Positions 7,227-39,792 of a stretch of DNA of 40,134 nt are shown here, one piece after another. This stretch comes from a virus. Both the position numbers and the translations under genes were made by a program. Position 1 is the stretch's first letter. The number at the start of each line of letters is the position of its first letter. The DNA lies in the UHGV virus genome UHGV-0210680, one strand, 5' to 3'. The notes beneath the pieces are model-generated. The model saw only the letters and a list, made by a program, of their open reading frames with translations. It searched no databases and had not been told where the DNA came from.

Positions 7227-7458
<232 letters not shown>

Positions 7459-7481
<23 letters not shown>

Positions 7482-7959
7482 TTTAGTCCTTGCAGCATTA
7501 CGTAAGCTCGGTGTGGCATCAAATGCCACGTTAACCGATGTCGAACCGCAGTCTATGGAAGACGGGGTCAACGACCTTGAAATGATGATGGCTGAATGGC
7601 TTGGCGGTGATGCGTCACCTGGGATCGACGTTGGCTACATTTTCGCTGATGCAGATGTCGCTCCAGATCCGGGCGATGAGCACGGTTTATCAAATAACGC
7701 TATCAATGCCGTCATTTTCAACCTTGCCTGCCGCATTGCTCCAGATTATGCGCTGGAAGCCTCTACAAAACTTATAACCACTGCCAGATACGGGAAAGAG
7801 CGACTCGTCAAACTGTCTGCAATGGACAGAGCAAAAGCCGCTAAATGTAAGTCCGGTTATCCAAACCGTATGCCTGTTGGTAGCGGTAATCAGTTGGCGA
7901 AGTGGAACGGTTGGAATTACTTCCAGCGAAAGGAACCTTGCGATAACGGGAGCGAATAA
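7459..7959 (+). CDS. head completion / tail adaptor protein (P22 gp4-like)
   Basis: 166 aa from the internal ATG at 7459 ([33 protein letters not shown]...), matching the P22 gp4 N-terminus and length. The longer ORF from 7366 runs through the repeat region. Confidence 0.85.
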
Positions 7960-15595: not shown

Positions 15596-17734
15596 ATGAC
15601 AGACATTACAGCCAATGTGATCGTATCGATGCCTTCGCAACTTTTCACTATGGCGCGTTCTTTTAAAGCGGTTGCCAATGGCAAAATTTATATCGGTAAA
15701 ATTGACACGGACCCCGTAAATCCAGAAAACCAGATTCAGGTTTATGTGGAGAACGAAGACGGCTCTCACGTTCCTGTTTCGCAACCAATCATCATTAATG
15801 CTGCTGGATATCCGGTATATAACGGACAGATTGCCAAATTCGTAACTGAGCAAGGCCATTCTATGGCTGTTTATGATGCGTATGGTGCACAGCAGTTCAA
15901 ATTCCCAAATGTGCTGAAGTACGACCCTGATCAATTTGAGATTAGGCTTTCTAATCAAGACGGCGCTGGTCTTGTTGGGATTATGCCATATGGCACGGTA
16001 CAGGATGCCATCAAATGGGTTGTCCCCGAGGTATTCCCCGGAAGTAATGCGTCAGAAAAATTACAGGCAGCTGTAAATTATGCGGTTGCAAACAAAACGA
16101 GAGTTGTAGCATCAGGTGTGTACGATGTAACAGCCCCCGTCACCATCCCAGGAGACATCATTATCGATGCTTCTACTGGAGAATTTACCTTCAATGGCAT
16201 TGATTATATTTTCCATCCGCTTGGCGCAAAATCAGTAGAGATTATCGGTGGTAAGTTCACCGCAAATGCATACCACACCCAGCGTCCTCAGGTAATTTTC
16301 AATGATTACCCTGATGGGCTGGCGAATTTACCAACGCGCGTGGTGATAAAAGATATGCAATGCTTTAACTGCGGTGTTGGCTACATCATGGTTAACTGTC
16401 AGGACCCAACCAGCGTACATATTTCAGTTGAAAATAACTATTGTACGACTGATGATAATACAGATTTATATATATCAAATTCAGATATGCATCCAGGAGA
16501 AAGCATATTCCCATATTTAACAATACTTGGTGATACGCTTGATTCTGTAGATTTGGGAACACCAAGAAAATCAATGTTCCATGTAACAGGAAATACATTC
16601 GATGTGTTTATGCAATCAGGTTATAATACAGATATATATAAAATAGGAAGCACAACAGTAGGAGGGGAAACAACAGGAAATAGGTTCATAAATAGGAATG
16701 AAGAATCATCATGTGAAATTGATACGTTCACCGGAGGTCTTGAATGTGTTATTGATAATAACACAATGTGGAATGTTTCTGTAAAAGCCATGACGTTATT
16801 AATAAGTGGCGGTGAACGAGTTGGTCTTGGTGGAAGATCATCTATAAGTAATAACGTTTTTCATTTTGAAAAAAACCCACTTAATGATTTTGGAATATGG
16901 TTAAGAACATCACTGGTAAATGTATGTAACAATGTTATTTATTATGTTGGATCTGATAACCCCTCAGAGCAACGTACATTTAACGGAATTTCAGGGCAAA
17001 AATTAGATAATAATAACAATGGATTTGGTGGTGATTGGTGTGCTGGTAATAACGTATCCAACAACATAATTCAAATTATTACAGGTGAAGTTGACAAATC
17101 TGTTAGAGTGCAATGCATCAATCCTACTGATTTCGCTGGGAGCGTTTTTAATGGAAATTGTCTTTTTGGTGGTAATGGTATGGTGATAGATGCAAGACCT
17201 GAAAGAAATAGAAATGTCTGGAGTGGTAATTATATAAGCTCTGGTCTATTTTCTGCTGAGGATATATGGAGAATGAATTCCGCATTCGTTGGTGGAAGTA
17301 ATTATATTGGAAGTTCTTACGATAACTCTGTTCGTGGCCCATATCTTTTAAGAAAGGAAATACCAGCTCAACAAGATGGGAGTATAATAAGAATTGAATT
17401 GGATTATGCGATAAATAATGGATACGCTTCGGACAGATGTCTTTATCTCTTAATGGTAAAAGTTAATGGTGGGATTAAAAATAACTATCAGACATTTGTT
17501 GTCTCTTCTGGAGCTCACGATGCGCAAGATCTAAAGCCAGCAATAGACGAAAGAATAGACCCAAACACAACTGACAACAATTTAAAACAAATATCATTTA
17601 GAGCTGGTTATACAGGTTCTAGTGGGCTAATTGTTTTGCAGGCAAGGGGTAATTATTATTCATCAGGAAATCCACCGACATCTATAGAATATTCTATTAT
17701 ACCGTTAACAGCAAACTTCCCCATGGCATTTTAA
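15596..17734 (+). CDS. tailspike protein (P22 gp9-like head-binding domain plus divergent receptor-binding domain)
   Basis: The N-terminal ~120 aa (MTDITANV.VS.P...SFKAVANGKIYIG.IDTDPVNP.NQI.VY.ENEDGSHV...NVLKYDPDQ) match the P22 tailspike head-binding domain. The remaining ~590 aa are N/G/S/I-rich and encoded by markedly AT-rich DNA. GGAG RBS upstream. Confidence 0.9.
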   Translation: MTDITANVIVSMPSQLFTMARSFKAVANGKIYIGKIDTDPVNPENQIQVYVENEDGSHVPVSQPIIINAAGYPVYNGQIAKFVTEQGHSMAVYDAYGAQQFKFPNVLKYDPDQFEIRLSNQDGAGLVGIMPYGTVQDAIKWVVPEVFPGSNASEKLQAAVNYAVANKTRVVASGVYDVTAPVTIPGDIIIDASTGEFTFNGIDYIFHPLGAKSVEIIGGKFTANAYHTQRPQVIFNDYPDGLANLPTRVVIKDMQCFNCGVGYIMVNCQDPTSVHISVENNYCTTDDNTDLYISNSDMHPGESIFPYLTILGDTLDSVDLGTPRKSMFHVTGNTFDVFMQSGYNTDIYKIGSTTVGGETTGNRFINRNEESSCEIDTFTGGLECVIDNNTMWNVSVKAMTLLISGGERVGLGGRSSISNNVFHFEKNPLNDFGIWLRTSLVNVCNNVIYYVGSDNPSEQRTFNGISGQKLDNNNNGFGGDWCAGNNVSNNIIQIITGEVDKSVRVQCINPTDFAGSVFNGNCLFGGNGMVIDARPERNRNVWSGNYISSGLFSAEDIWRMNSAFVGGSNYIGSSYDNSVRGPYLLRKEIPAQQDGSIIRIELDYAINNGYASDRCLYLLMVKVNGGIKNNYQTFVVSSGAHDAQDLKPAIDERIDPNTTDNNLKQISFRAGYTGSSGLIVLQARGNYYSSGNPPTSIEYSIIPLTANFPMAF

Positions 17735-18963: not shown

Positions 18964-20112
18964 TTATCTATCAAGCCAGTCCGCCCACCATTGCATCATT
19001 TCTCTGCGTTTATCGAGATACTGAGCATGGTTGTAAATTCCACGCACAGAACCGCCGTTGGCATGTGCCAGTTGCACTTCAATAGCATCAGCAGGCCATT
19101 CGTGCTCGTTCATAATCGTGCTGAATTCATGCCTGAATCCGTGACCGCTTTCCAGACCTTCATAGCCGATTTGTTTGATCACAAGCAGTACCGCGTTCTC
19201 GCAGATTGGCTTCTTCTTATCGTTGCGCCCGGCAAAAACAAACTCTGATACTGGTTTAGTGATGGAGCTTAGCGTAGTGAGAAGTTCAACTACCTGGTCC
19301 GACATCGGAACCACATGAATCTTGCGTCCCTTCATCACACTGGCGTCGATGGTGATAATCCTGTTTTCAAAATCGACGTTCTTCCATTGCATGGAACGAA
19401 GCTCTTTTGTTCTTAGTGCTGTGTAGCGTAAAACTTTGGTCGCAATGAGAGATACGATACTTCCTGAAAATGTTGCAAGTGCTTTGTTGAATGCCGGGAT
19501 CTGGTCGGCAGGTAAAAACGGGAAGTTCTTCTTGCGGTATCCTTTCATGGCGTCTGCAAGGTCAGGTGCCGGGTTATATTTAGCCCTTCCGGTGACAATA
19601 GCGTAACGAAAAACCTCGCCGCATCTTCTGCGGGCTTTGTTGGCTCGCTCCATTGCACCGCGATCTTCAAATCTGCGGATTACTTCCAGCAGTTGCATCG
19701 GCTCAATATCATGAATCTCAAGACCGCCGATGATGGGTAAAATGTCGTCATCAAACATTTTGGCAAGTTCAGTTGCATAGCCTACTGACCAGACTTGCTT
19801 CTTGTGCTCGTACCATTCCTTGTAAATCGCACTAAATGAATTGTTGTTAGACGAAGCCTTTTTCGCCTTTACCGGATCGATGCCAACCGAGATGTCTTTC
19901 CTCGCAGTCCATGCCTTATCCCTTGCTTCCTGCAAAGTCATAAGCGGATATTTTCCGACGGTCAGGATTTTCTCCTTACCGTCAATCTTGTAGCGAAGCT
20001 GCCATACCTTTTTCCCGGATACAGGAACATAAAGGTACAGGCCATTACCATCGAGAAGGCGGTATGGTTTTTCTTTCGGCTTTGCTGCTTCAATCTGCTT
20101 AACGGTGAGCAT
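18964..20112 (-). CDS. int: tyrosine integrase (P4-like family)
   Basis: N-terminus from the ATG at 20112 (MLTVKQIEAAKPKEKPYRLLDGNGLYLYVPVSGKKVWQLRY) matches the P4-type integrase arm-binding domain; the C-terminus has an HGFRH box and a catalytic-Tyr region (GIYNHAQY). The ORF track begins at an upstream GTG (20148). Confidence 0.85.
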   Translation of the reverse strand: MLTVKQIEAAKPKEKPYRLLDGNGLYLYVPVSGKKVWQLRYKIDGKEKILTVGKYPLMTLQEARDKAWTARKDISVGIDPVKAKKASSNNNSFSAIYKEWYEHKKQVWSVGYATELAKMFDDDILPIIGGLEIHDIEPMQLLEVIRRFEDRGAMERANKARRRCGEVFRYAIVTGRAKYNPAPDLADAMKGYRKKNFPFLPADQIPAFNKALATFSGSIVSLIATKVLRYTALRTKELRSMQWKNVDFENRIITIDASVMKGRKIHVVPMSDQVVELLTTLSSITKPVSEFVFAGRNDKKKPICENAVLLVIKQIGYEGLESGHGFRHEFSTIMNEHEWPADAIEVQLAHANGGSVRGIYNHAQYLDKRREMMQWWADWLDR

Positions 20113-20361
20113 GGGTAAAAATCCGGTGGGTAAAATTATTTTATCCACTTTTTACCCGTCATGGAGTGCGGCTGTCAACGATCTGACGCGAACCATGACG
20201 AACCGTGAATATACGGAAGGCTTGATATTCAGGGGATTTTGCGGACTGGTACGGATGGGAGCGAACTGATAAATGGTGTCCCCTGCAGACATCTACTTGA
20301 GGCAGCAGGGGATTGATTAGAATGGTATTTTTTAGATGTGAGAAATATTTTACCCGCTAAT

Positions 20362-24347: not shown

Positions 24348-24508
24348 ATCGCATTCAGATATTTGTTTTGATTTACTGATGGAAAAGAATTTCTCTTAAG
24401 CAATTCCTCTCTCGATGGCATTGGCTTTACGCGTTGGCGAATAATCATTTCTGCCGGAAGAATGCCTGGATTGTATGCAAGTCCTCTCATGGTAAATTCC
24501 TCAGTCAT
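24323..24508 (-). CDS. hypothetical small protein
   Basis: An internal ATG ([15 protein letters not shown]...) of ORF 24323..24643 gives a 61-aa product with minimal overlap with the upstream gene; the longer N-terminal extension overlaps ORF 24501..24797 heavily. Confidence 0.3.
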
Positions 24509-24797
24509 TACTGATAGCGCCATAGCGTGAGCGGTAATTACGCAGGCGCGGGTCGATATATTCAGGGAAGTGGGTATATGTGGCTTTGCGGAATGGTCGG
24601 ATTGATGTCTGGTAAATTCGCTCGCGCTCTTCTTTCTCTGCAAGCCATATACAATGGCGAAATTCCTTTTCCTCTTTCGTTTCCTGCGGTAGAGACATTA
24701 TTCGATCGTAGTTTTTTCTGAATTTATCCAGCACTTCCGATACGGAATTGCCGGAACAGCGGCGTGGGTCATCCGCACCATACAGAGGCGCTGGCAT
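24501..24797 (-). CDS. hypothetical protein
   Basis: 98-aa ORF immediately downstream of the SSB-like gene in the same operon. Confidence 0.45.
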
Positions 24798-24820
24798 AAT
24801 GGAATCCTTATGTTGCTACT

Positions 24821-25204
24821 TTAGAAGGGAATTGAATCGTCGTATTCAGGATGATTTTGATGATTGCTACTTTGCTGCTGTTGGCTGTTTCCTGAAGTTG
24901 CAAATCCAATCTTTGCATTCAGTAATTCAAGAGTGATTGATTGACCATTTTGCCCCTGATAAACATCAACCCTGATGTTTTCTCCGGTAATTTCTACAAT
25001 GCCACCTTCAACAAGAACACTACGGTAGTAATCCGCTTGCGCTCCCGGCTTGGCAAATACAACGGCGCTGTAGTTTGTCCATTCTTTCTTTTTTGTCTGG
25101 CGATCGTAATACTGAACGCCAGCACGGATGTTGAATCCGATATTTTCCCCGGCCTGAAACTCTCTTGCGGGCTTGTTTAGTCTTACAGTAATCGAATGTG
25201 CCAT
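24821..25204 (-). CDS. single-stranded DNA-binding protein (phage SSB-like)
   Basis: 127 aa from the ATG at 25204 (overlaps the erf stop as TAATG); beta-rich OB-fold-like core, a Q/S-rich linker and a C-terminal acidic tip ...EYDDSIPF resembling the SSB DDDIPF tail. Confidence 0.65.
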   Translation of the reverse strand: MAHSITVRLNKPAREFQAGENIGFNIRAGVQYYDRQTKKKEWTNYSAVVFAKPGAQADYYRSVLVEGGIVEITGENIRVDVYQGQNGQSITLELLNAKIGFATSGNSQQQQSSNHQNHPEYDDSIPF

Positions 25205-25809
25205 TAAGCAGCCGCTCCTTCTAATTCGTCTCGTCTGATGTTGTAAACGTCCTGCGCTTTGTGCTGCTCCGGTGTGCCTTCGAGCATCTTCCACGCTTTG
25301 GCGAACGCCTGTTTAAGCTCTTCCACGGTGTTTTTCTGCATTGCTGCGTCAGTGAATGCTTTTAGAACCTGTTCAGGTGTAGGTGATGGTTTTGATTGCT
25401 TTGCTGCTGCGTTCTGCTGATGTTTATGCTCGTCTGTATCTGCATCTTTCGCATCATCAATGCCGAATAAACCATTGAGGCAATACTTGCGTGCATAAGA
25501 GCTTGTAGCTCCCGTAACTTGTGCAGAATCCATTCCTTTCTTGCTTTCTTCCTCTCGTGCAAGAGCGGTTGCCGTATGACTGTTTTCGCCATCGGTAATA
25601 GTTGCCGTGGCTTTCACGTAATACCGATCACCAATCAACACAACTTCATCGCTGATTGATAAAAACAGGCCATTCAGTAACGGCTTAACGCCTTCAAGAA
25701 TGTCTTCGCAGCTTCTGTATTTATATTTGCCGAATGAGTTGTACTGATTCTTTGGCGCGTTCAGATTCTCCTGAATAGCTGCCAGTCTTGCGTAAAATTC
25801 TTTGCTCAT
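25204..25809 (-). CDS. erf: Erf single-strand annealing recombinase
   Basis: From the ATG at 25809: MSKEFYARLAAIQENLNAPKNQYNSFGKYKYRSCEDILEGVKPLL.GLFLSISDE.VLIGDRYYVKATATITDGENSH... is near-identical to P22 Erf as recalled. Confidence 0.9.
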   Translation of the reverse strand: MSKEFYARLAAIQENLNAPKNQYNSFGKYKYRSCEDILEGVKPLLNGLFLSISDEVVLIGDRYYVKATATITDGENSHTATALAREEESKKGMDSAQVTGATSSYARKYCLNGLFGIDDAKDADTDEHKHQQNAAAKQSKPSPTPEQVLKAFTDAAMQKNTVEELKQAFAKAWKMLEGTPEQHKAQDVYNIRRDELEGAAA

Positions 25810-25910: not shown

Positions 25911-26069
25911 TTATGGCGATACCAGAGAGCTTTCTGCGTGTACATGCGTCTCTGTAACTTGCTCTCCTTCACTGTGGTTGCAAGTGACATGAATATCTCC
26001 TTCGTTACCGATTAAATCTTTCATCTGACGAATGAATTCTTCGTCTGACCAGTTATCTGTAAAACTCAT
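25911..26069 (-). CDS. Arf-like small protein (position of P22 arf)
   Basis: 52-aa ORF (MSFTDNWSDEEFIRQMKDLIGNEGDIH...) found by manual translation between erf and kil; its start overlaps the kil stop (ATGA). Below the ORF-track size cutoff. Confidence 0.45.
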   Translation of the reverse strand: MSFTDNWSDEEFIRQMKDLIGNEGDIHVTCNHSEGEQVTETHVHAESSLVSP

Positions 26070-37067: not shown

Positions 37068-37252
37068 ACGCCACAATTCAAACGATACCAGAGCTTCTTA
37101 TCCAGACACGAGGAAATCAGACCGAAGTGGCGAGGATGCTTTCCTGCGCAAGAGGAACAGTGCTCAAGTACAACCGAGACAGCAAAGGTGAGCGTCATGT
37201 AATAGTTAACGGCGTCCTGATGGTCAAACAGGGCAAGAGGGGAAGACGATGA
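37064..37252 (+). CDS. ninH: NinH-like small DNA-binding protein
   Basis: 62-aa ORF with an HTH-like core GNQTEVARMLSCARGTVLKY resembling lambda NinH; immediately upstream of Q. Confidence 0.6.
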   Translation: MNATIQTIPELLIQTRGNQTEVARMLSCARGTVLKYNRDSKGERHVIVNGVLMVKQGKRGRR

Positions 37253-37872
37253 GACTAGAAAGTGTAGCTAAATTTCATTCGCCAAAAAGCCCGATGATGA
37301 GCGACTCACCACGGGCTACGGCTTCTGACTCTCTTTCCGGTACTGATGTGATGGCTGCTATGGGGATGGCGCAATCACAAGCCGGATTTGGAATGGCTGC
37401 ATTCTGCGGTAAGCATGAACTCAGCCAGAACGACAAACAAAAGGCTATCAACTATCTGATGCAATTTGCACACAAGGTATCGGGGAAATACCGTGGCGTG
37501 GCAAAGCTTGAAGGAAATACTAAGGCAAAGGTACTGCAAGTGCTCGCAACATTCGCTTATGCGGATTATTGCCGTAGTGCCGCGACGCCTGGCGCAAGAT
37601 GCAGAGATTGCCACGGTACAGGCCGTGCGGTTGATATATCAAAAACAGAGCTGTGGGGGAGAGTTGTTGAGAAAGAATGCGGAAGATGCAAAGGTGTCGG
37701 CTATTCAAGAATGCCAGCAAGCGCCGCATATCGCGCTGTAACGATGCTAATCCCAAACCTTACCCAACCCACCTGGTCACGAACTGTTAAGCCGCTGTAT
37801 GACGCTCTGGTGGTGCAATGCCACAAGGAAGAGTCAATCGCAGACAACATTTTGAACGCGGTCACACGTTAG
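37249..37872 (+). CDS. Q: late-gene antiterminator Q (lambda-type)
   Basis: 207-aa ORF MRLESVAKFHSPKSPMMSDSPRATASDSLSGTDVMAAMGMAQSQAGFGMAAFCGKHELSQ...CRDCHGTGRAVD...CGRCKGVGYSRMPAS, essentially identical to lambda Q as recalled. Confidence 0.95.
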   Translation: MRLESVAKFHSPKSPMMSDSPRATASDSLSGTDVMAAMGMAQSQAGFGMAAFCGKHELSQNDKQKAINYLMQFAHKVSGKYRGVAKLEGNTKAKVLQVLATFAYADYCRSAATPGARCRDCHGTGRAVDISKTELWGRVVEKECGRCKGVGYSRMPASAAYRAVTMLIPNLTQPTWSRTVKPLYDALVVQCHKEESIADNILNAVTR

Positions 37873-37914
37873 CAGCATGATTGCCACGGATGGCAACATA
37901 TTAACGGCATGATA

Positions 37915-37943
37915 TTGACTTTTTGAATAAAGTTGGGTAAATT
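37915..37943 (+). promoter_or_regulatory. late promoter pR' (with overlapping qut region)
   Basis: -35 TTGACT (37915..37920) and -10 TAAATT (37938..37943) with 17-bp spacing, immediately downstream of Q; the flanking sequence matches the lambda pR'/6S region as recalled. Confidence 0.8.
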
Positions 37944-38083
37944 TGACCCAACGATGGGTTAATTCGCTCGTTGTGGTAGTGAGATAAAAAGAGGCGGCGC
38001 TTACTACCGATTCCGCCTAGTTGGTCACTTCGACGTATCGTCTGGAACTCCAACCATCGCAGGCTGAGAGGTCTGTAAAATGC

Positions 38084-38146
38084 AATCCCGAAACAGTTCG
38101 CAGGTAATAGTTAGAGCCTGCATAACGGTTTCGGGATTTTTTATTT
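38084..38146 (+). terminator. tR' terminator (3' end of the 6S-like short late transcript)
   Basis: Long interrupted hairpin AATCCCGAAAC...GTTTCGGGATT followed by TTTTTTATTT; lambda-like sequence. Confidence 0.8.
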
Positions 38147-38221
38147 GGGTCAGTCGTATAAAGGTCATTACGGAAGGCTGTTAACCTTCTTATCGTGGTT
38201 CGAGTCCACGCTGTCCCGCCA
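38147..38221 (+). tRNA. tRNA-Asn (anticodon GTT), phage-encoded
   Basis: 75 nt folded by hand: 7-bp acceptor stem with one U-U mismatch, anticodon stem GAAGG/CCTTC with loop CTGTTAA (U33, GTT, A37), T-arm CGTGG-TTCGAGT-CCACG, discriminator G and encoded CCA. The anticodon loop and T-loop match E. coli tRNA-Asn; the D-stem is only 3 bp. Confidence 0.6.
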
Positions 38222-38226
38222 AATAT

Positions 38227-38302
38227 GCTGGTTTAGCTCCAATGGTAGAGCAGTCGCCTTGTAAGCGAATGGGTAGCGGTTCAAGTCCGTTAACCAGCAC
38301 CA
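38227..38302 (+). tRNA. tRNA-Thr (anticodon TGT), phage-encoded
   Basis: 76 nt folded by hand: perfect 7-bp acceptor stem GCTGGTT/AACCAGC, D-arm GCTC-CAATGGTA-GAGC, anticodon loop CTTGTAA (TGT), T-arm AGCGG-TTCAAGT-CCGTT, discriminator A and encoded CCA. Confidence 0.75.
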
Positions 38303-38544
38303 TAACTGAGCCGTAGCCACTGGCTATCCTGAACTCATCAGTGATAGTTACGCTGCGGCCTTCTACACATGATCTTCGTGAAAGCGGGTGGCAGGAGGCT
38401 GCGCTAACAACCTCCTGCCGTTTTGCCCGTGCATATCGGTCACGAACAAATCTGATTACTAAACACAGTAGCCTGGATTTGTTCTATCAGTAATCGACCT
38501 TATTCCTAATTAAATAGAGCAAATCCCCTTATTGGGGGTAAGAC

Positions 38545-38868
38545 ATGAAGATGCCAGAAAAACATGACCTGTTAGCCGCCATTCTCGCGGCAAAGGAACA
38601 AGGCATCGGGGCAATCCTTGCGTTTGCAATGGCGTACCTTCGCGGCAGATATAATGGCGGTGCGTTTACAAAAACAGTAATCGACGCAACGATGTGCGCC
38701 ATTATCGCCTGGTTCATTCGTGACCTTCTCGACTTCGCCGGACTAAGTAGCAATCTCGCTTATATAACGAGCGTGTTCATCGGCTACATCGGTACTGACT
38801 CGATTGGTTCGCTTATCAAACGCTTCGCTGCTAAAAAAGCCGGAGTAGAAGATGGTGGAAATCAATAA
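38545..38868 (+). CDS. S: holin / antiholin S (dual-start motif MKM)
   Basis: 107-aa [65 protein letters not shown]..., matching lambda S107/S105 as recalled. Confidence 0.95.
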
Positions 38869-39328
38869 TCAACGTAAGGCGTTCCTCGATATGCTGGCGT
38901 GGTCAGAGGGAACTGATAACGGACGTCAAAAAACCAGAAATCATGGTTATGACGTCATTGTTGGCGGAGAGCTATTCACTGATTACTCCGATCACCCTCG
39001 CAAACTTGTCACGCTAAACCCCAAACTCAAATCAACAGCCGCAGGACGTTACCAGCTTCTTTCCCGTTGGTGGGATGCCTACCGCAAGCAGCTTGGCCTG
39101 AAAGACTTCTCTCCGAAAAGTCAGGACGCTGTGGCATTGCAGCAGATTAAGGAGCGTGGCGCTTTGCCGATGATTGATCGCGGTGATATCCGTCAGGCAA
39201 TCGACCGTTGCAGCAATATCTGGGCTTCACTGCCGGGTGCTGGTTATGGCCAGTTCGAGCATAAGGCTGACAGCCTGATTGCAAAATTCAAAGAAGCAGG
39301 CGGAACGGTCAGAGAGGTTGAGGTATGA
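38852..39328 (+). CDS. R: endolysin R (lambda-type lytic transglycosylase)
   Basis: 158-aa [56 protein letters not shown]..., matching lambda R as recalled; overlaps the 3' end of S. Confidence 0.95.
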
Positions 39329-39792
39329 GCAGAGTCACCGCGATTATTTCCGCTCTGGTTATCTGCATCATCGTCTGCCTGTCATGGGCTGTTAATCATT
39401 ACCGTGATAACGCCATGGCCTACAAAGAACAGCGAGATAAAAAAGTCAGTGAGCTGAAGCAGGCGACCGCCACCATTACTGACATGCAGCAGCGCCAGCG
39501 TTCTGCTGATGCACTCGATGCTAAATACACGAAGGAGTTAGCTGATGCGAAAGCTGAAAATGATGCTCTTCGGCGCAAGCTTGATAATGGTGGTCGGGTG
39601 TTCGTCAAAGGAAAATGCCCTGTGCCATCCTCAGCCGAAACCTCCAGCGCCTCCGGCATGGGCAATGATGCCACCGTCGAACTCTCTCCAGTTGCTGGAC
39701 GAAACGTTCTCGGTATCCGGGACGGAATTATCCGCGACCAAACAGCACTGAGAACGCTTCAGGAATACATCAGGACGCAATGCCTTCGATGA
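39325..39792 (+). CDS. Rz: spanin inner-membrane subunit Rz
   Basis: 155-aa ORF with an N-terminal TM segment ([23 protein letters not shown]) and a coiled-coil periplasmic domain; lambda Rz-like. Confidence 0.9.
39545..39751 (+). CDS. Rz1: spanin outer-membrane lipoprotein Rz1 (embedded in Rz, +1 frame)
   Basis: 68-aa ORF wholly inside Rz in another frame: signal peptide plus lipobox (LIMVVGC) followed by a Pro-rich segment ([11 protein letters not shown]), as in lambda Rz1. Confidence 0.8.

Follow-up and report, generated by a model that had tools for sequence, protein, structure and literature searches.

Why does a lambdoid phage carry two tRNA genes at the point where its late transcript leaves the terminator tR', ahead of the holin gene? 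We addressed this question in the window, meaning the whole 40,134-bp stretch of DNA that was analysed. The reading we prefer, at a probability of roughly 0.8, is that the pair forms a mobile lambdoid cassette, transcribed late, which sustains decoding of AAC/AAU and ACA codons, and whose Thr member has been shown, on an identical sequence, to act as an escape tRNA against the P2 Old nuclease.

Two complete tRNA genes between tR' and the holin gene

The first-pass annotation, made from the letters alone, had proposed two tRNA-like genes, Asn-GTT and Thr-TGT, between tR' and the holin gene and had named tRNA-detection software as the check. ARAGORN and Rfam agree on both genes. The sole tRNAs that ARAGORN calls in the 40,134 bp are tRNA-Asn(gtt) at 38147-38221 and tRNA-Thr(tgt) at 38227-38302, both on the + strand. 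The Rfam model RF00005 matches the former with 55.3 bits (E = 2e-9) and the latter with 61.5 bits (E = 4e-11), well above the gathering score of 29. Both matches run end to end (model positions 1-71 of 71, untruncated), and an Rfam search of the whole window returned nothing beyond these two genes. The features of the region are as follows.

37249..37872, + strand: late antiterminator Q, lambda-type, 207 aa (ORF; counterparts annotated in HK446 and mEp506)
37915..37943, + strand: late promoter pR', TTGACT-17-TAAATT (promoter scan; inside the lambda-aligned stretch)
38084..38146, + strand: intrinsic terminator tR', a long hairpin and then the T-tract TTTTTTATTT at 38137-38146 (lambda alignment and fold)
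38147..38221, + strand: tRNA-Asn(GUU), 75 nt, with encoded CCA, G73 discriminator and conserved U4·U69 and U13·U22
38222..38226, + strand: inter-tRNA spacer AATAT, 5 nt (sequence)
38227..38302, + strand: tRNA-Thr(UGU), 76 nt, with encoded CCA, G1-C72, C2-G71 and G27·A43
38304..38544, + strand: lambda-like leader upstream of S (lambda alignment; also common to Sf6)
38545..38868, + strand: holin S, 107 aa, first protein gene of the late operon (ORF; HK446 and mEp506 annotations)
38852-39328, + strand: endolysin (ORF; HK446 and mEp506 annotations)
39325-39792, + strand: Rz (ORF; HK446 and mEp506 annotations)

Both tRNAs have a complete cloverleaf, with a 7-bp acceptor stem, D arm, anticodon arm, T arm (TTCRA), discriminator and CCA. 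The 5-nt separation of the genes and the encoded CCA that closes each of them (38219-38221 in tRNA-Asn and 38300-38302 in tRNA-Thr), both pointed out earlier, can be read directly from the sequence. The anticodon arm consists of a 5-bp stem and a 7-nt loop with U33 and a purine at position 37, from which tRNA-Thr deviates at G27·A43. In tRNA-Asn, the U-U acceptor mismatch and short D-stem described by the first-pass annotation are found as U4·U69 and a 3-bp D-stem with U13·U22, together with a 4-nt variable loop. The oddities of tRNA-Thr, absent from that description, are the G27·A43 mismatch, which cuts the anticodon stem to 4 bp, and C14. The deviations of both tRNAs are kept across variants.

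The E. coli AsnRS identity set comprises G34, U35, U36 and the discriminator G73, and that of ThrRS comprises G1-C72, C2-G71, G35 and U36. The window tRNA-Asn has the anticodon loop CUGUUAA and G73 before its CCA, and all four ThrRS elements are there in tRNA-Thr. With these identity elements present, AsnRS and ThrRS should charge the cassette tRNAs. The rescue experiments discussed below, carried out with a tRNA of identical sequence, imply that tRNA-Thr decodes ACA.

On the opposite strand, an ORF at 38168-38320 (50 aa) overlaps both tRNAs and is probably spurious. RNA-seq of Kapi1 gave a clear antisense signal opposite the two tRNAs (PMC12922286); a consensus scan of 37400-38900 found no sigma-70-like minus-strand promoter to account for a signal of this type.

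Predicted position at the head of the late transcript

The anatomy upstream of the cassette is that of a lambda-type late control region. The Q counterparts in HK446 and mEp506, within a region of 99.9% identity, are annotated as late gene regulator Q or antitermination protein, and the HK446 record labels the same pR' site 'similar to coliphage lambda PR''. The terminator aligns with lambda tR' as far as 38144, and the RNA of 38070-38146 folds with -28 kcal/mol; its long loop put it beyond the reach of a simple terminator scan. The first base of tRNA-Asn (38147) directly abuts the tR' T-tract, and a lambda-like leader of ~240 nt separates the cassette from holin S. Between the tRNAs and S, at 38390-38425 (+), there is also a GC-rich hairpin of 9 bp, GGCAGGAGG...CCTCCTGCC, with GTTTTG behind it. 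It is nearly the same in lambda and Sf6, except that the two final bases of its 5' arm are changed, and it resembles a weak terminator, which the terminator scan did not flag.

When aligned, the window and lambda are nearly identical as far as 38144, and the near-identity returns at 38304. The first-pass annotation had described lambda-like sequence interrupted by about 160 bp and resuming before S, and that part stands. Its description of the segment as an insertion does not, since ~159 bp of the window (38145-38303) stand where lambda has ~163 bp of unrelated sequence (its positions 44782-44944), that is, a substitution of near-equal length. Such an exchange for a lambda segment of almost the same length, exactly at the end of the leader, might indicate that the cloverleafs serve mainly to process or stabilise late mRNA, for example by letting RNase P split a 6S-like leader from the S mRNA, and are not decoders. 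However, lambda works without the cassette, the anticodon loops, identity elements and encoded CCA are conserved, and rescue in the experiments cited below depends on the anticodon. A role confined to RNA structure or processing is unlikely, and that the tRNAs act mainly in this way strikes us as highly improbable.

No sigma-70-like promoter of the cassette's own was found on either strand of 37400-38900, where the consensus scan finds pR' alone, and therefore the tRNAs should be made by read-through of tR', mainly with Q present. Promoter scan, ORFs and lambda alignment agree with the earlier placement of the pair within the Q-antiterminated late transcription unit, with pR' and tR' upstream and S downstream. 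On this anatomy, transcription would begin at pR' and ordinarily end at tR'. Q-modified RNA polymerase would pass tR', making the tRNAs the first products of the late transcript, before S-R-Rz and the structural genes, and we infer from this arrangement that the tRNAs originate in the Q-dependent late transcript. General tRNA biology suggests that they would then be freed by RNase P together with trimming of the 3' end back to the encoded CCA, and the cassette tRNAs would keep AAC/AAU and ACA decoding running through late protein synthesis.

A mosaic module common to lambdoid phages

The Asn-Thr pair is a well-known, common and already annotated lambdoid cassette located behind the late-leader terminator tR'. 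The Q-S interval of the window (711 bp) shows 99.9% identity to HK446 and mEp506 and 98.7% to Kapi1. Both tRNAs are base-identical among the window, HK446, mEp506, phage 21 and Sf6, which also share their order, the 5-nt spacer length and the position right after tR'. The pair is annotated in the records of mEp506, Kapi1, Sf6, SfI, S107, SPN9CC and others; the Sf6 GenBank record marks both tRNAs as 'similar to phage 21', and the tRNA-Asn/tRNA-Thr pair of SfI was described in a 2013 paper. In the HK446 GenBank record the pair is present in the sequence and its annotation is missing.

In a blastn search, 410 of 5426 complete E. coli genomes contain at least 80% of the cassette length, and a scan that used the Asn anticodon arm as its anchor located the cassette in at least 120 IMG/VR contigs. 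Among the IMG/VR matches listed, the tRNA sets are Asn+Thr (99), Asn+Gly (7) and Asn alone (4); at other loci among them the set is extended by Phe, Arg or Gly, and 3 gave no tRNA call.

The sequence upstream of the cassette is of two kinds. In HK446, mEp506, Kapi1 and the window, the cassette stands behind a lambda-type Q/pR'/tR' module, whereas in phage 21 and Sf6 it stands behind an unrelated 21-type module. Among the IMG/VR matches listed, ~90% have a phage-21-type terminator and ~10% a lambda-type one as in the window. The spacer reads AACAT in phage 21 and Sf6 and AATAT in the window, and both forms are common among the IMG/VR matches listed. Homology between the lambda-type and 21-type contexts begins within a common T-tract, TTTTTTAT, and the cassette is therefore a mosaic module joined at the same point to two unrelated Q/qut/tR' modules.

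The cassette tRNAs resemble their host isoacceptors only distantly: tRNA-Asn is 63% identical to asnT and tRNA-Thr 72% identical to thrU, with anticodon stems that are wholly remodelled. A host-derived origin was considered and rejected, since blastn of the complete E. coli genomes matched prophage and plasmid copies only and no host asn or thr genes.

Outside this cassette, Asn(GUU)+Thr(UGU) is the common core of small tRNA sets in P1, N4, an SSU5-like phage-plasmid, the Klebsiella phage Mulock and JLK-2012. In P1, N4, SSU5-like phage-plasmids and Mulock, as in the window, the Asn and Thr genes are adjacent and close-set, with the same anticodons and with Asn first, but they lie in other genomic contexts and are accompanied by extra tRNAs (Ile, Ser, Pro, Phe, Arg). 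Their Thr tRNAs are 82-92% identical to that of the window. The tRNA-Asn of Mulock is 91% identical to that of the window, whereas those of P1, N4 and the plasmid are only 59-65% identical and therefore probably of separate origin.

Plunkett and colleagues are said to have described, in 1999, ileZ-argN-argO tRNA genes downstream of Q in the Stx phage 933W. Going by that account, 933W resembles the window in having tRNA genes in a lambdoid late leader, between Q/pR' and the late genes, and differs from it in the tRNA species (Ile, Arg), which are decoders of rare codons. A related report on ileX is cited in PMC3636060.

Integration site

Could the tRNAs offset a host tRNA gene broken when the prophage integrates? 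The discussion of 10.64898/2026.07.10.737580 raises this idea for HK446, and lambdoid phages often integrate in tRNA genes. The window contains an att core of 17 bp, AATGGTGTCCCCTGCAG, as an exact copy at 20272-20288 (+), beside int at 18964-20112 (-) and 18 kb from the cassette. The same att core in Kapi1 and Sf6 is the 3' end of argW, a tRNA-Arg gene, and integration leaves argW intact (PMC8787464), which predicts that the window phage would also integrate at argW. The gene at the predicted site is thus one for tRNA-Arg, is left intact, and is targeted by an att core far from the cassette. HK446 and SfI use thrW, which encodes tRNA-Thr(CGU), not UGU. Moreover, the same cassette occurs with different integrases, and its tRNAs are full-length and just 63-72% identical to host genes. 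Compensation is contradicted both by the attP site and by the tRNA species concerned, and we attach very little probability to it.

Conservation of tRNA-Asn and decay of tRNA-Thr

The mismatches of tRNA-Asn had led to the earlier suggestion that it could be a degenerate copy. U4·U69, the D-stem of three pairs with U13·U22 and the 4-nt variable loop would all suit a decaying pseudo-tRNA that travels with a functional Thr gene. The Rfam score of 55.3 bits against a gathering score of 29 speaks against decay, and so does conservation: phages of Escherichia, Shigella and Salmonella (phage L) share the identical tRNA-Asn, and 90 of the 118 IMG/VR copies among the matches listed are identical to that of the window. 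Across 11 distinct Asn variants, six stem pairs are changed on both sides with pairing kept, a number reached by none of 500 shuffles, and slid registers give 0-2. All 11 variants leave U13·U22 unpaired, 9 do so for U4·U69, and the AsnRS identity set G34-U35-U36 plus G73 is retained. The U·U mismatches of tRNA-Asn are conserved features, not decay. The suggestion of a degenerate copy accordingly finds no support; conservation and covariation largely refute the pseudogene idea, to which we give very little probability. tRNA-Thr has compensatory changes of its own relative to Mulock, from UA to CG at both 3-70 and 6-67.

The lineages in which one partner is damaged also argue against an Asn pseudogene, since the P22-like Salmonella and JLK-2012 lineages damage Thr and leave Asn intact. 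In the P22-like Salmonella phage L, the second tRNA (L006:1088-1159) has lost 4 nt from its anticodon arm, bears the annotation tRNA-Leu(TAA) and is not called by ARAGORN; the neighbouring tRNA-Asn is 100% identical to that of the window. In JLK-2012, the second tRNA (L013:1588-1663) is a chimera whose 5' part is phage tRNA-Thr and whose anticodon arm and 3' part are thrU-like. It is 88% identical to thrU, has a mispaired anticodon stem and receives no ARAGORN call. The same chimera occurs at 8 IMG/VR loci among the matches listed, and its composition suggests recombination between phage and host Thr(UGU) genes.

Codon demand of the late genes

To what extent does the codon usage of the phage account for the pair? 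The phage sample comprised 18 late genes with 5968 codons in all, and the host reference was limited to 34 ordinary K-12 genes with 9558 codons. ACA occurs 16.9 times per 1000 codons in the late genes and 7.0 times in the K-12 sample; at 2.4-fold, its ratio is exceeded only by those of AGG and AGA. Asn codons occur 57.1 and 36.6 times per 1000, respectively, a 1.56-fold difference. By absolute excess among all codons in the late genes, AAC ranks second and ACA sixth. The tailspike gene (15596-17734, +) has 95.5 Asn codons per 1000, and ACA makes up 52% of its Thr codons. The codon comparison that the first-pass annotation had put forward as a check is positive for both tRNAs (ACA 2.4-fold, Asn 1.6-fold), and codon supply by both is plausible.

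Tailspike codon usage is very atypical in other respects as well, with ATA at 32 per 1000 and AGA as 58% of Arg codons, which is consistent with a module from a lower-GC source. As a separate observation on the window's proteins, the longest ATG-started ORF at 7366-7959 (+), whose start codon is putative, opens with a Ser-Gln repeat, MLQ(SQ)6KK....

Do the two tRNAs then do nothing more than boost the decoders of ACA and AAC/AAU, with no tie to host defence? The 2.4-fold ACA and 1.56-fold Asn excess over the K-12 sample and the extreme values of the tailspike would be expected if so, and SfI shows a similar ACA usage (17.3 versus 7.1 in the host; PMC3636060). Furthermore, the host makes tRNA-Thr(UGU) from one gene, thrU, which is the sole UGU tRNA in MG1655 (PMC12445682). 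However, AGA, AGG and ATA are enriched 2.4-3.4-fold in the late genes, as much as ACA or more, and the window has no tRNA for them. Since these equally enriched codons lack a matching tRNA, codon supply alone fails to predict the Asn+Thr pair. The pair also recurs in unrelated phages, namely P1, N4, an SSU5-like phage-plasmid and T5, whose codon usage differs, and its identity to host isoacceptors of only 63% (Asn) and 72% (Thr), with remodelled anticodon stems, is not what plain supplementation would require. Finally, added host tRNA-Thr(UGU) protected little or not at all against OLD, whereas the phage versions did protect, so the divergent sequence matters and not the dose alone. We consider supplementation unlikely as the whole explanation, with an appreciable chance left to it. 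As part of the preferred reading, plain supplementation probably contributes alongside defence evasion, because the late genes demand ACA and Asn decoders more than host genes do.

The SfI paper (PMC3636060) states that there is 'no bias for Asn' on the basis of the codon 'CAA', which is the wrong codon for the anticodon GUU. This negative result is invalid because CAA encodes Gln.

tRNA-Thr and escape from P2 Old

Classic P2-lambda interference has P2 Old as its effector, and Old kills by cleaving the tRNA-Thr(UGU) of the host (Govande et al.; PMC12445682). In that study, the cut sites are paired CNG motifs (nt 28-30 and 40-42) in the anticodon stem, phage variants of tRNA-Thr(UGU) rescue cells from Old, and the tRNA of phage 21 ('tRNA-Thr21') is both protective against P2-OLD and refractory to cleavage in vitro. 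In a second study, HK97, HK542 and Bas34, all sensitive to OLD, regained plating with the Thr(UGU) of HK446; viral tRNA-Thr alone rescued neither lambda nor OLD toxicity in recB cells (10.64898/2026.07.10.737580). The authors of that study are sceptical of a mainly anti-OLD role for the HK446 tRNA, as HK446 also has Oad2.

The features that define OLD resistance in PMC12445682 are a UGU anticodon, altered paired CNG motifs (28-30, 40-42) and a shortened anticodon stem. All of them are found in the window tRNA-Thr, which has UCG/CGA where host thrU has CUG/CAG and a 4-bp stem resulting from G27·A43. Its sequence is the same as those of the tested tRNA-Thr21 and HK446 Thr(UGU), which were expressed from plasmids and not from the window phage. 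Escape from OLD by this Thr tRNA is experimentally established elsewhere, and the identity of sequence suggests that it would extend to the window phage. In the proposed course of events, P2 Old would kill lambda-type infections through an anticodon-stem cut in host tRNA-Thr(UGU), and the cassette tRNA-Thr would resist this Toprim nuclease and replace the destroyed host tRNA, as shown on the identical sequence. Q-dependent expression of the tRNA may be late relative to OLD activation.

An HK446-type recombination locus is present in the window at 25914-26069 (-) with 24504-25809 (-), and its products match those of HK446 at 100% (Erf), 99% (gp31) and 97% (Abc2). The same locus encodes a homolog of Gp33 with 86.5% identity over 52 aa. 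In the 2026 preprint, Gp33 triggers P2 Old (10.64898/2026.07.10.737580). HK446 has the inhibitor Oad2, whereas the window phage does without it: a homolog of this HK446 anti-Old protein (gp27) was found nowhere in the window. The OLD preprint credits HK446 with a single tRNA; HK446 in fact has the Asn+Thr pair, unannotated in GenBank.

tRNA-Asn as a possible nuclease-escape tRNA

If the Thr member is an escape variant, is the same true of its partner? We put this forward as a tentative proposal, nearer to doubtful than to probable: tRNA-Asn(GUU), like tRNA-Thr, may be a nuclease-escape variant. The two OLD papers (PMC12445682; 10.64898/2026.07.10.737580) overlooked the Asn gene, and we found no publication that links lambdoid tRNA-Asn with defence evasion.

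The PARIS nuclease AriB offers a point of comparison. AriB cuts between nt 40 and 41, beside a U36-A-A-U39 motif, and changing U39 to A in tRNA-Lys abolishes cleavage (Belukhina et al.; PMC12409363, PMC11464382). In the same work, T5 variants of tRNA-Lys, Thr and Asn jointly neutralise PARIS (PMC12409363, PMC11464382). At positions 36-41, the window tRNA-Asn reads UAACCU versus UAAUCC in the host, and the window tRNA-Thr reads UAAGCG versus UAAUCA. Both tRNAs have lost U39 and are changed near the 40|41 cut site, a match that is unspecific because their stems diverge from the host throughout. The window tRNA-Asn also lacks the paired CNG motifs of the host (AAG/CUU versus CGG/CCG), and the published cleavage determinants are absent from both window tRNAs. 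T5 is like the window in having Thr(UGU) and Asn(GUU) with U39 lost and position 41 changed. Unlike the window, it has tRNA-Lys(UUU), the prime AriB target, which is required for rescue; ARAGORN finds no tRNA-Lys(UUU) in the window, which therefore does not hold the full AriB-resistant set. The window tRNAs are only 62-66% identical to those of T5.

Loss of U39 and of CNG was considered as proof of selection for escape and rejected, since the entire anticodon stems differ from the host. A random stem is without CNG ~94% of the time, and a Mulock-type Asn variant bears CNG on both strands. A counter-defence reading of the whole cassette fits the sequences without being proved by them. If tRNA-Asn is an escape tRNA, this would explain why Asn(GUU)+Thr(UGU) recurs as a core in the 21/Sf6 type, P1, N4, SSU5-like phage-plasmids and Mulock, and why the Asn gene is kept where Thr decays. 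The cassette may then also be the main anti-OLD measure in the window phage, in which a Gp33-type trigger is present and Oad2 is absent.

Implications

The cassette is real, ordinary and previously known, and the anti-Old role of its Thr member was published in 2025-2026. Two published statements need correction in the light of the present analysis, namely 'no bias for Asn' in SfI and a 'single tRNA' in HK446. tRNA-Asn may likewise resist Old or AriB, and Asn and Thr together may protect lambdoid phages from tRNases borne by P2 and P4. Read correctly, the locus is an example of temperate phages opening their late transcript with tRNAs for defence evasion or supply.
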